Positions 21,653-24,000 are shown, counted from the first letter of the stretch. The stretch is DNA of 24,000 bases from Candidatus Desulfofervidaceae bacterium (GCA_027038965.1 JALWFG010000019.1:38659-62658); one strand, 5' to 3'. The notes: generated from the letters alone by a model not told the origin. Numbers and translations are program-made.

Positions 21653-21728
<76 letters not shown>

Positions 21729-21746
21729 GCAAAAGCAAGTAATTAA

Positions 21747-21782
21747 GGCCAGTTAGGCCAAGCTCCTAACTGGCCTTTTTGT
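21747..21782 (+). terminator. Rho-independent terminator after tRNA-Phe
   Basis: Perfect 11-bp stem GGCCAGTTAGG (21747-21757) / CCTAACTGGCC (21765-21775) with a 7-nt loop, followed by TTTTTGTTT. Confidence 0.8.
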
Positions 21783-21825
21783 TTGTAAAAAGGCAGGGGT
21801 AAACATGGGGTAAAGATAGACCCTG

Positions 21826-22359
21826 CTAAAAGTTTTTGAAACCATCCCATTTGTCCCATTTTTCTGGCGCCCATGCTACGGGCTTCTTGGACCCCGGGGG
21901 AAAATATCGGCCTTCTCTAAGGCAATATTGCAAGACTTCACACCAGTTGAAAAATGTTTCGTATTTTCTCTTGTTCCCAAGCTTCTGGAGCTCCGTTCTG
22001 ATTTTAAGCGGTATTTTAGGAAGAAGACCCGCTAGCTCTCTGCTGGTAATTGTGGGAAAATCTGAAGAAATGTCTTTTGCGTCCGCCTGTTTTAAAACAT
22101 ACAACCTTCGGCCAAGAAGGAGGTAATGAAAAGGAATAATCCTATTTTGAATAGATGAGAGCGAAAAGCCAGTTTCTTTTGCAGCAGTTTCGGGCAAAAC
22201 AAGGACCGTGCTGTTTTTCCGATTCCACCACTTGGCAACTGGATCATTAGTGTAGCTAAGCTGATCCAGAACAACAGGAAACGGAAAAAAATACAAATAT
22301 AGAATTTTGCCAAAAGGCGAAAGGGCGTAAATTGGTCCCGTCTTTTTTATACTGGACAA
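21826..22359 (-). CDS. Hypothetical protein; apparently the C-terminal ~2/3 of a gene split by a frameshift (see 22256-22582)
   Basis: 177-aa ORF that begins only at a TTG with no RBS. Its first residues (SSIKKTGPIYALSPFGK) read like the wing of the winged-helix domain encoded by the upstream overlapping ORF. No family recognised. Confidence 0.6.
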   Translation of the reverse strand: MSSIKKTGPIYALSPFGKILYLYFFPFPVVLDQLSYTNDPVAKWWNRKNSTVLVLPETAAKETGFSLSSIQNRIIPFHYLLLGRRLYVLKQADAKDISSDFPTITSRELAGLLPKIPLKIRTELQKLGNKRKYETFFNWCEVLQYCLREGRYFPPGSKKPVAWAPEKWDKWDGFKNF

Positions 22360-22582
22360 CTACAGCCTGCTTTTTCTCAAGGCTTTGGAGGGACCTCTTA
22401 CACGCTTTCCCAATAGCTACCTGGATGGAGCTGAGGGAGAGGGCCCCGTGCCAGAGTAGATGTAGAATTTCCTTTTCTAGGGCGTGAATCTGGACTTGTT
22501 TTTTCTTTTTTCTGCCCTTTTCCACGCTTATCTTTTTTCTCCTTTTTAATTTTTTGTCAATAGTTTTGTTGTTTTTTATCAA
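22256..22582 (-). CDS. Winged-helix DNA-binding N-terminal fragment of the same split gene
   Basis: A Lys/Arg-rich N-terminus is followed by ALEKEILHLLWHGALSLSSIQVAIGKACKRSLQSLEKKQAVVVQY, which is wHTH-like. The frame decays into SVSCCSGSA after the A6 run. The start is TTG 22582, or GTG 22525 with AAGGAG 13 nt upstream. Confidence 0.45.
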   Translation of the reverse strand: MIKNNKTIDKKLKRRKKISVEKGRKKKKQVQIHALEKEILHLLWHGALSLSSIQVAIGKACKRSLQSLEKKQAVVVQYKKDGTNLRPFAFWQNSIFVFFSVSCCSGSA

Positions 22583-22610
22583 TAGGTTTTAACAGTTAAA
22601 TCAATAGGTT
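22557..22610. repeat. Three iteron-like direct repeats TCAATAG(G)TT at an exact 22-bp period
   Basis: TCAATAGTTTT at 22557, TCAATAGGTTTT at 22579 and TCAATAGGTT at 22601. The second and third copies share the 11-mer ATCAATAGGTT. They lie at the 5' end/upstream of the wHTH gene, next to an AT/homopolymer-rich spacer (22611-22766). Confidence 0.6.
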
Positions 22611-22766
22611 AAGACAAAATAAAGCATTTCTTTTGATTTTTACGAGAGAAAACAAAAACAGTTTTTTTACTTCGCTTTAACCTCTTTTACTCTCTTTTTT
22701 TGTTTTTTGTCGGAGAAAAAAAGACACTAATTTTTGGTAGGAGAGAAAAAAAAGAGGTAAGCGAAA

Positions 22767-23414
22767 ATGCAAAAGAGAAGAAAGGAAAAAGAGAGAAAAG
22801 AGAATCTGCTGCTCTTCTGGCAGGTTCAAGAACAAGTTCAGAATTTTTTTGAAAACAAGGGTATTTACGCAACAGAGACGATCACAGCATATGTGACAAT
22901 ATGTGTTGCCGTTCAGGCCATCAACCACAAGTGGAAACAAGTCTACGACTGGAAAATTGCCGAGGCCCTGGCTCAACTCTACCGTCACGAACCAATCGAA
23001 AGGCCCCGAATGCAAGGAAAATCGGCCATTCTTCGCTTTCTGGCAACCTGGGACGCGTGGACCTTGGAGAAGCACCCCACTGTCCACTTTTCAACCCTAG
23101 AGAGAACAGACGGCAGCCTGCTGGCTGAGGAGTTTTTGATCCCGACCGACGAACCGGCCCCGGAATCGGAACCAACAGAGAAAATCAAAGCAGAAATTGA
23201 GCAATTTTTTGGCGGGATTTGGGCCTATGCCGAAGCGGCCCTTGAAGAAAACCTGCGGAGAAATCAGCGAAAAAAGGAAAGGGAACGGCTAAAACAGCAG
23301 CAGCTTTTTGCCATATCTTCTGAGCCCAAACCCAGGGAAAAGAAAAGAAAAAAGCACCCCCGGCGCAGGCGCCGGCCGTTTAGGCCCGGGCCAGGGCCGG
23401 CGGCACCGGCTTAG
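22767..23414 (+). CDS. Hypothetical protein with basic N-terminus and extremely basic, Pro/Gly-rich C-terminal tail
   Basis: 215-aa ORF with AGAGGT 9 nt upstream of the ATG. Divergent from the wHTH gene. No family recognised. The tail is KKRKKHPRRRRRPFRPGPGPAAPA. Confidence 0.6.
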   Translation: MQKRRKEKERKENLLLFWQVQEQVQNFFENKGIYATETITAYVTICVAVQAINHKWKQVYDWKIAEALAQLYRHEPIERPRMQGKSAILRFLATWDAWTLEKHPTVHFSTLERTDGSLLAEEFLIPTDEPAPESEPTEKIKAEIEQFFGGIWAYAEAALEENLRRNQRKKERERLKQQQLFAISSEPKPREKKRKKHPRRRRRPFRPGPGPAAPA

Positions 23415-23562
23415 GCCGGCCGGGATTGCACTTTTGCACTTTATTGATAGGGAGGTGATGAGGGATGTAGCAAGGGCAAGGCAGTAAAAAGGAGGGAAAG
23501 CCAGAGGCGGAGGAGGAGGAAAAGAAGGAAAAAACAAAAAAACAAAACAAGGAGGTAAAACG

Positions 23563-24000
23563 ATGATTGACCTTGAAACCTACGGTTACGAGGTGGAGTT
23601 TGCCGCAAAGAACGGCGACGAACTCAAAAAAATCGGGCTCCATCCTTTTTTTACGATCCTCCCTCCCTCTCATGTAGTTCGAGATGGTTGGTTGTGCGCT
23701 TACAAAAATCACAGAGATGAAAAAAAGAAAGTCGACATAATCGAGATAGAAAAAATTTGTCCGATGTTCTGGATTTCAGCCGTGGCGAACCCCGTAGAAG
23801 GGGATGAAGGCGGCGTGATGATCCTTAAGCGAGCAGATGGAGCCGCAAAAGTCTTTTCTTACCGCGACATTTCCGACCCCCGGAAAGCGGGCTGCATCTT
23901 AGCCGACTTTCTGGAGGTGCCTTTTACTACCGATACTAGAAAAACAGTATTGCTGTATTTGCGGAGTTTTTTCCTAAAAAACCTAAGAAATATCCGCAGC
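23563..24000 (+). CDS. Hypothetical protein, N-terminal 146 codons (runs off window); possibly the N-terminal region of a DUF927-type primase/helicase replication protein
   Basis: My own translation: MIDLETYGYEVEFAAKNGDELKKIGLHPFF...ICPMFWISAVANPVEGDEGGVMILKRADGAAKVFSYRDISDPRKAGCILADFLEVPFTTDTRKTVLLYLRSF. It is open to the window end, and AAGGAGGT lies 7 nt upstream. This ORF is not in the supplied track because it has no stop. The functional guess rests on remembered family pattern only. Confidence 0.7.
   Translation, partial: MIDLETYGYEVEFAAKNGDELKKIGLHPFFTILPPSHVVRDGWLCAYKNHRDEKKKVDIIEIEKICPMFWISAVANPVEGDEGGVMILKRADGAAKVFSYRDISDPRKAGCILADFLEVPFTTDTRKTVLLYLRSFFLKNLRNIRS

Follow-up and report, generated by a model that had tools for sequence, protein, structure and literature searches.

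The tRNA-Phe-proximal end of a probable helper-dependent mobilizable island in a Candidatus Desulfofervidaceae genome

Introduction

Desulfofervidaceae are thermophilic sulfate reducers that partner with methane- or alkane-oxidising archaea, and we know of no description of mobile elements in this family. The DNA considered here is a stretch of 24,000 nucleotides, referred to below as the window, from a Desulfofervidaceae bacterium from hydrothermal vents; it corresponds to positions 38659-62658 of contig C19 of the source genome (G000, whose contigs carry C-numbers). Its final part, positions 21729-24000, begins directly after a tRNA-Phe gene and contains a winged-helix regulator gene, three phased repeats, an orphan gene encoding a protein of 215 amino acids (aa) and the 5' part of a gene for a DUF927-type helicase. 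An earlier note, made from the sequence alone, regarded this block as the edge of an integrated plasmid- or virus-like replicon of unrecognised type. The block is probably the tRNA-proximal end of an integrated island, referred to as island A, which carries a replicon of the type found in the pathogenicity islands of Staphylococcus aureus (SaPIs) and which would be mobilised with the aid of a helper, in the manner of genomic island 1 of Salmonella (SGI1) and of the mobilizable genomic islands (MGIs).

The attachment site at tRNA-Phe

The tRNA-Phe(GAA) gene (21653-21728, plus strand) is the sole tRNA called by ARAGORN in the window and is the integration target of the island. The gene is intact, and its sequence is 100% identical in two family relatives. 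The left attachment site (attL, 21676-21756, plus strand) is an 81-bp direct repeat made up of the 3' 53 nucleotides of the tRNA and 28 nucleotides beyond it. A second copy, attR, is located at C10:29846-29766, where no tRNA is called, and is identical to attL at 79 of 81 positions. An intact open reading frame (ORF) for a 385-aa tyrosine integrase (PF00589, 1.3e-31) begins 317 bp from attR on C10, with cydA and cydB on the far side of the repeat. The distant copy of the tRNA-Phe 3' end and the recombinase that the earlier note had proposed to look for are therefore both present on C10, and its view of the block as the edge of an integrated element is borne out.

The tRNA terminator hairpin (21745-21777, plus strand) is a perfect 13-bp inverted repeat (100% complementary) followed by a T run. 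At the first of the two mismatches between the att repeats, attL has the native variable-loop G, as in the relatives, and attR has an A; at the second, attL has the C that completes the hairpin, and attR has a T and diverges within the left arm, so that no hairpin is formed there. Together the mismatches are consistent with a crossover between them, inside the repeat. The right arm of the hairpin would then be element DNA, in which case the island now supplies the terminator of tRNA-Phe. Such an arrangement would arise if the integrase recombined the chromosomal gene with an attP site that mimics the 3' part of tRNA-Phe, leaving the 81-bp direct repeats.

Just inside attL, at 21796-21817 (plus strand), is the tandem GGGGTAAACAT / GGGGTAAAGAT, which provides candidate arm-type integrase sites. 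The 17-mer pattern of this tandem has three occurrences genome-wide, all of them just inside the att sites of island A and of a sibling island, B, which is described below. The motif GGGTAAA, which was picked after being seen, occurs 13 times across the four att arms, which total 912 bp, where 0.3 would be expected, and the repeats of this motif in both arms are likely to be arm-type integrase sites.

The GC content of the block varies between 0.35 and 0.55 (0.346 at 22501-23000) and overlaps the genome value of about 0.41, so that composition alone marks no boundary. The sequence had been described as changing character directly after tRNA-Phe; a boundary is indeed real, but the description was overstated, since the composition is not distinctive, and the true boundary falls within the att repeat (21676-21756).

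The winged-helix gene and the three phased repeats

The winged-helix regulator gene (21826-22525, minus strand) has a GTG start and encodes 232 aa when intact. In this assembly it is split between two ORFs on the minus strand, one of 177 aa (21826-22359) and one of 108 aa (22256-22582), which overlap in different frames, and a comparison of contigs from four vent metagenome runs (X1-X4, X1 being the source sample) locates the frameshift at a run of six T residues (A6 on the coding strand) at 22343-22348. One letter of this run is absent at full depth in X2, X3 and X4 and is retained in X1, and on a contig from run X2 (L051) the gene is called intact, with 232 aa. As the frameshift is confined to X1, the split gene is a variant of one population and not a property of the island. 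The 232-aa protein has no family match, and a word search with it returned only itself or nothing, consistent with its earlier designation as an orphan; weak winged-helix, MarR and WhiP leads come from the Atlas.

Three TCAATAG(G/T)TT repeats (TCAATAGG repeats; 22557-22610, plus strand) start at 22557, 22579 and 22601, exactly 22 bp apart, in line with the precise phasing that had been reported for them. Relative to the winged-helix gene, they are located 32-85 bp upstream of its GTG start. When one mismatch is allowed, the motif has five matches in the window against 1.6 expected, three of which are clustered at 22557-22601. The repeats are followed by an A/T- and homopolymer-rich divergent intergenic region (22611-22766), read directly from the sequence. 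In island B, no counterpart ORF of at least 90 aa and no TCAATAG(G/T)TT-type repeats are found between the att site and a 194-aa gene, the paralogue of the 215-aa orphan described below. The position upstream of the regulator start and the lack of a counterpart in island B make it more likely that the three repeats act as the operator of the winged-helix gene within a divergent promoter region.

The 215-aa orphan and the DUF927 helicase

The 215-aa orphan gene (22767-23414, plus strand) is the first gene of the helicase operon. Its product shares 48-50% identity with a 194-aa protein encoded at the corresponding position of island B, and this same-organism paralogue is the sole relative returned by a word search of 5.8 billion proteins and by a full hidden Markov model scan of 1.84 billion cluster representatives; the profile of the 215-aa protein has no matches in IMG/VR. 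The gene is thus an orphan divergent from the regulator gene, as had been proposed. A 189-aa ORF directly upstream of a helicase gene in G003, a Candidatus Desulfofervidaceae metagenome-assembled genome (MAG), is a distant match to the 215-aa family (155 columns, hhalign probability 68%, E 5e-5), which suggests that the two-gene module of orphan and helicase may predate this species. The predicted complex of the 215-aa protein with the helicase scored 0.00, which speaks neither for nor against an interaction.

The second gene of the operon encodes a DUF927 or MCM-like replicative helicase, only the 5' part of which is contained in the window (23563-24000, plus strand); the full ORF of 657 aa runs 1.5 kb past the window. 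The protein matches PF06048 (DUF927) at 1.7e-19 and phrog_8841 ("DNA primase/helicase") at 6e-46, in support of the guess of a DUF927-type helicase that had been made from its N-terminus. A weak C-terminal helix-turn-helix (HTH) of the type found in Cch, the helicase of the staphylococcal cassette chromosome SCCmec, is also detected (HTH_56, 2.9e-4). Among solved structures, the helicase matches 8tch, a SaPI "Pathogenicity island protein" (1.5e-7), and 5dgk, the Cch of SCCmec (0.0046). Its score against the NCBIfam model Cch1 (NF047345) is 42.9 bits, far under the cut-off of 700, and the helicase is therefore a relative, not a member, of the named families. Plasmid and phage DUF927 proteins share only 23-36% identity with it across the ATPase core, no primase domain was identified in its N-terminal 140 aa, and it has no matches in IMG/VR. 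When genome collections were scanned with the helicase alignment, the copies in G003 were the only matches apart from weak ones to the core in gut MAGs. The block had been interpreted as a replication/partition control module; the helicase upholds the replication part of this description, and no partition genes are seen.

A candidate origin downstream of the helicase

The origin of SaPIs lies immediately downstream of rep and consists of 6-12 iterons around an AT-rich centre, with no fewer than two iterons to either side, running in opposite directions, and SaPI-type helicases read their own origin via a winged helix in the C-terminal domain (PMC9371898). Of the 42 exact copies of GGTTATCCC in the genome, 10 are clustered within 325 bp (C19:64309-64634) outside the window, 1.6 kb past its end, where they begin 100 bp and extend to 440 bp beyond the stop codon of the helicase gene. 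The plus-strand copies are located to the left and the minus-strand copies to the right of an AT-rich stretch (C19:64404-64460). In island B, five tandem 21-bp iterons and an AT-rich stretch directly follow the replication genes (contig L010, 16874-16979), and in an island of G003 (G003:C45) inverted GGRACGGGACACCT copies surround an AT-rich stretch 160-420 bp after the helicase gene. Since its layout matches the SaPI origin and recurs in island B and in G003, the GGTTATCCC iteron cluster is the best origin candidate and, as a sequence pattern, most likely represents the origin of the island. The three phased repeats in the window had earlier been assigned to an origin or partition site, an assignment that is unlikely given the stronger iteron clusters 3' of the replication genes in A, B and the relative's island and the operator position of the repeats themselves.

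Extent and content of island A

C19 extends 7.3 kb past the window, and its end is bridged by a contig from another run (L047) that is 99.2% identical to it. With the bridging contig, an 832-aa ORF at the end of C19, which in a word search returned only itself or nothing, extends to a protein of 1281 aa and forms its C-terminal part; the first 493 aa of this protein match TraG_N (PF07916) over the whole model (6.6e-67). Beyond the C19 end, L047 is only 87% identical to contig C16; C16 therefore belongs to island B, and the continuation of island A is absent from the genome bin. This continuation is instead an unbinned 17.9-kb scaffold of the source sample (ENA scaffold_2083, L056), which carries genes for a 157-aa and an 85-aa protein, HEPN/AbiU2, a HicA pair, type I hsdS/M/R and DUF6236, as well as a short prokaryotic Argonaute (pAgo; PADLOC 4.6e-59) with three unnamed neighbour genes. 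Island A also contains HicAB, small membrane proteins and, at its far end, the integrase. Both the end of scaffold_2083 and the integrase-bearing end of C10 consist of a multi-copy repeat, through which the two would be joined, and the total length of the island would be about 30-31 kb plus this repeat. The 232-aa, 215-aa, 149-aa, 157-aa and small membrane proteins belong to no named families.

Several further observations concern the assembly. A sequence of 126 bp is common to eight contig ends of the source genome (left of C1, C3, C5, C13 and C21; right of C7, C10 and C17), and this unassembled multi-copy repeat, which breaks the assembly, is probably an insertion sequence (IS); one of these breaks is inside island A and adjoins a truncated PIN-like gene. 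A second repeat family is located at the ends of C6, C10 (left), C15, C18 and scaffold_2083. In X1, the word depth is 55 for the regulator-to-helicase contig (L009, 1-7238), 85 for the chromosomal flank and 78 for the TraG part, and the depths are equal in the other runs; the lower X1 depth is weak evidence and may reflect strain heterogeneity.

Close to TraG are small membrane proteins whose C-termini are acidic; two of them end in ISDDDD (L009, 7167-7469 and 9139-9390), and that of island B (L010, 17278-17655) ends in NNDDE. By our own conjecture, these acidic-tailed proteins might be exclusion proteins paired with TraG.

A sibling island at tRNA-Sec

The right ends of C19 and C3 have 127 identical bases in common, and C3 carries both a paralogue of the large minus-strand ORF of C19 and the 194-aa paralogue of the 215-aa orphan (L010, 12975-20000, equivalent to C3:53184-60209). 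The replication set that accompanies the 194-aa gene consists of a protein with a DnaB N-terminal domain, an AAA_25 ATPase and a 276-aa protein, and differs from the DUF927 module of island A. To the left of the 194-aa gene lies a partial tRNA-Sec of 80 bp, 97.5% identical to the full tRNA-Sec on C16, and the integrase gene beside the C16 tRNA-Sec is 83-84% identical to that of island A and is frameshifted. The matching tRNA-Sec copies and the integrase indicate that island B spans from C3:53256 through the start of C16 (C16:1-31006) to tRNA-Sec.

The cargo of island B on C16 includes TraG_N, DUF6602, a ResIII helicase, an N6 methylase, a Schlafen-type protein, PglZ, a Gp49/HTH pair and a Gabija-like pair of OLD/AAA_15 and UvrD proteins. 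Between the two islands TraG is 66% and the 157-aa protein 85% identical. TraG_N, with a ratio of non-synonymous to synonymous substitution rates (dN/dS) of 0.22, and the 157-aa gene, with a ratio of 0.23, are under purifying selection.

Transfer genes in the source genome and in a relative

A profile search identifies one TraG_N region in the source genome. With the transfer-gene profiles applied there (PF12846, PF11130, PF12696, PF03432 and PF08751, together with PF06122 for TraH), no VirB4/AAA_10 (PF12846), TraC, TraH or coupling protein is found above threshold, nor does either of the two relaxase families tried give a match; in control genomes these searches were positive. The Pfam list of scaffold_2083 likewise contains no VirB4/TraC, coupling protein or relaxase, and a genome-collection scan with the TraG_N alignment returned nothing. 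With no ATPase, coupling protein or relaxase of those two families found in the genome, a complete integrative and conjugative element (ICE) was rejected as an explanation of the island.

A complete genome of the same family (G002) does contain an F-type ICE, with TraC, TraF, TraH and TraG at C1:976000-1019500 of that genome. Its TraG is 35-39% identical to the TraG proteins of islands A and B and is followed by homologues of the 149-aa and 132-aa genes of the islands. In the G002 element, an Eco57I-type methylase-nuclease and an SNF2 helicase are inserted between the TraC and TraF-TraG parts. The presence of TraG with no other conjugation gene points to island A being mobilizable in a helper-dependent manner.

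Distribution among relatives

The helicase is present in only one of 40 relatives, G003, in three copies with 36-42% identity, and is not found in the same-genus genome; the 215-aa gene is found in none of the 40. An ordinary gene, the homologue of which is here on C5, lies 178 bp after yifB and tRNA-Phe in the same-genus genome, where synteny is too broken for an empty-site comparison with the cydAB flank. In the comparison with relatives, which had been suggested as a check, the block appears not to be conserved, the helicase and the 215-aa gene not being found in the same-genus genome. An ordinary housekeeping block was also considered and was rejected, as its genes are orphans that are not found in relatives. 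In G003, each of the three DUF927 helicase genes is beside a tRNA gene (Arg-CCT, with an integrase, Met and Arg-CCG).

Relationship to known integrated elements

The element had been placed outside the described types. That part of the earlier note does not stand, since the helicase belongs to the SaPI-Rep/SCCmec-Cch (DUF927) group and the overall plan of integrase, replicon, TraG and defence cargo matches known mobilizable and defence islands. The closest parallel in plan is with SGI1 and the islands mobilised by IncC and SXT elements (MGIVchHai6, MGIVflInd1 and those at dusA or yicC), which similarly combine a tyrosine integrase, a size of 20-40 kb, a replicon of their own and cargo. The TraG, TraH and TraN proteins of SGI1 take the place of their counterparts in the IncC helper and circumvent entry exclusion, and SGI1 replicates after excision (PMC7449626; 10.1101/2021.06.18.448947; see also PMC5389848 and PMC7433901). 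The MGIs conserve an HTH gene beside a DUF927 gene (PMC7449626; bioRxiv 10.1101/2021.06.18.448947). Like SGI1, the islands described here have a subunit of an F-type mating pore but no transfer apparatus, and the identity of the SGI1 TraG to that of its helper, about 37%, compares with 35-39% to the TraG of the relative's ICE. Unlike SGI1 and the MGIs, island A is inserted in a tRNA gene and not in trmE, dusA or yicC, and its replicon contains a DUF927 helicase in place of the rep/trfA replicons of the SGI1 type. Whereas SGI1 has TraG, TraH and TraN, only TraG is present here (TraH was looked for and not found; no search for TraN was made). The host also differs, being a thermophilic member of the Desulfobacterota, and the island has defence instead of drug-resistance cargo and no known helper.

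With SaPIs and other phage-inducible chromosomal islands (PICIs), which have self-loading helicases of the Pri-Rep kind, island A shares a homologous helicase, opposed iterons around an AT-rich centre and a divergent regulator. It differs from them in that no packaging or capsid genes (terS, cpm, ppi) were found among the PHROGs and Pfam matches, no helper phage is known, the size is twice as large and the integrase is at the far end. The Cch operons of SCCmec and other SCC elements resemble the operon in the window in having a DUF927/MCM-like helicase with a C-terminal HTH of Cch type and a small partner gene directly upstream. However, this partner gene is here an unrelated orphan, and a tyrosine integrase is used at a tRNA, where SCC elements rely on a Ccr serine recombinase at rlmH (no search for serine recombinases was made). 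Pipolins and tRNA-linked defence islands (PMC11551731) likewise have a small core for integration and replication, exchangeable defence cargo, direct repeats and a location at integration hot spots, but no piPolB is present on island A or B, the genome's only PF03175 match being on C21. That match, a family-B DNA polymerase of the DNA_pol_B_2 type (PF03175, 2.1e-7; C21:129560-129961) within an open frame of 828 aa, may point to a viral or pipolin-like element.

The island thus brings together features that are already known: a tyrosine integrase directed at tRNA genes, a replicon of SaPI/Cch type, and one conjugation subunit along with defence cargo. What is particular is the TraG-only backbone, the lineage-restricted genes, the swapping of replication modules and tRNA targets between siblings, and the host.

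Competing explanations

In the reading favoured here, the window would contain the control and replication end of a mobilizable island, with a regulator acting on its repeat operator and a divergent operon for the 215-aa protein and a self-loading helicase. The island would excise, replicate as a circle and borrow the F-type transfer apparatus of a helper ICE, its own TraG replacing that of the helper as in SGI1. Several points weigh against it. No helper ICE, no relaxase among the two families tried and, with no model for it applied, no oriT was found in the source genome, and TraG is the only subunit of the set present. No excised circle or empty site is seen, the run contigs breaking in the att core, where attP and attB cannot be separated from attL and attR; the depth of the island in X2 and X3 is about that of the chromosome on the run contigs, and the island is therefore not replicating freely there. 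The join of scaffold_2083 to the end of C10 that bears the integrase crosses a multi-copy repeat that is unassembled, and is inferred. The winged-helix gene is frameshifted in the source sample, as is the integrase gene of island B, and the AlphaFold2 models of the 215-aa and 232-aa proteins (pLDDT 48.4 and 36.6) are unusable. Some of these points would be expected if A and B were decayed, fixed remnants of F-type ICEs that had lost the transfer apparatus and kept TraG as a leftover. Decay of this kind would account for the survival of only TraG and its downstream neighbour from the gene set of the relative's ICE, for the repeat or IS that interrupts island A, for the frameshifts in the A regulator and the B integrase and for the chromosome-like depth in X2 and X3. 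It is nevertheless unlikely, because two diverged siblings retain exactly the same gene subset, the att repeats are nearly perfect, the integrase and helicase of A are intact and the regulator is intact in three of the four runs. The purifying selection on TraG_N and the 157-aa gene and the full-length TraG in both islands also argue against plain decay.

The remaining alternatives concern the replication genes. The exact 22-bp spacing of the three repeats in the window, about two helical turns, and their location beside an AT-rich tract and a gene would suit an iteron origin, with the 232-aa protein as the two-winged-helix Rep of an integrated iteron plasmid; the secondary structure of the 232-aa model suggests two helix-turn-helix-plus-wing units (low confidence, pLDDT 37), and the archaeal replication initiator WhiP is among the weak Atlas matches. 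This proposal is improbable when set against the three copies here compared with 10 iterons 3' of the helicase, and against island B, which has iterons after its replication genes yet no counterpart of the ORF or the repeats before the 194-aa gene. SaPI-type helicases, moreover, recognise their own origins through the C-terminal winged helix (PMC9371898). In the source population the 232-aa gene is also broken and the island is nevertheless retained, although an integrated island would not need the gene. A PICI- or SaPI-like phage satellite, which excises, replicates and depends on a helper phage for its packaging, would likewise have a helicase related to SaPI Rep (8tch, 1.5e-7), an iteron origin laid out as in SaPIs and a regulator gene divergent from the replication operon; island A has such a helicase and regulator gene and a candidate origin of this layout. 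Such a satellite is very improbable here: no terminase, capsid-remodelling or virion genes were detected with PHROGs and Pfam in the nine ORFs of the C19 part or in the precomputed Pfam assignments for the rest, the helicase and the 215-aa protein have no relatives in IMG/VR, the length of about 31 kb is twice that of a SaPI, and a conjugation protein is carried instead. A prophage was rejected, no virion genes having been found in these scans.

Beyond the helper-dependent island itself, a broader proposal is possible, though it is offered tentatively and with more doubt than belief. Islands A and B may represent an undescribed family of helper-dependent mobilizable islands of thermophilic Desulfofervidaceae that reached the strategy of SGI1 independently, in which the islands' own TraG would remodel the mating pore of an F-type ICE and evade exclusion. 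The SaPI-type replicon would be swappable (DUF927 in A, DnaB-N/AAA_25 in B), related integrases with shared GGGTAAA sites would have been retargeted between tRNA-Phe and tRNA-Sec, and the lineage-restricted 215-aa protein would serve as a new partner of the helicase or as an origin factor.

Implications

Desulfofervidaceae carry islands of 30-40 kb that would move defence systems, including short pAgo, type I restriction-modification, Gabija-like genes and AbiU2. The siblings A and B share a backbone and arm sites and differ in their tRNA target and replication module, and therefore offer a natural experiment on the exchange of integrase core specificity and of replicon modules. The retention of a replicon together with a single conjugation gene points to a relation between helper and hitchhiker, with F-type ICEs as the helpers, in hot sediments.

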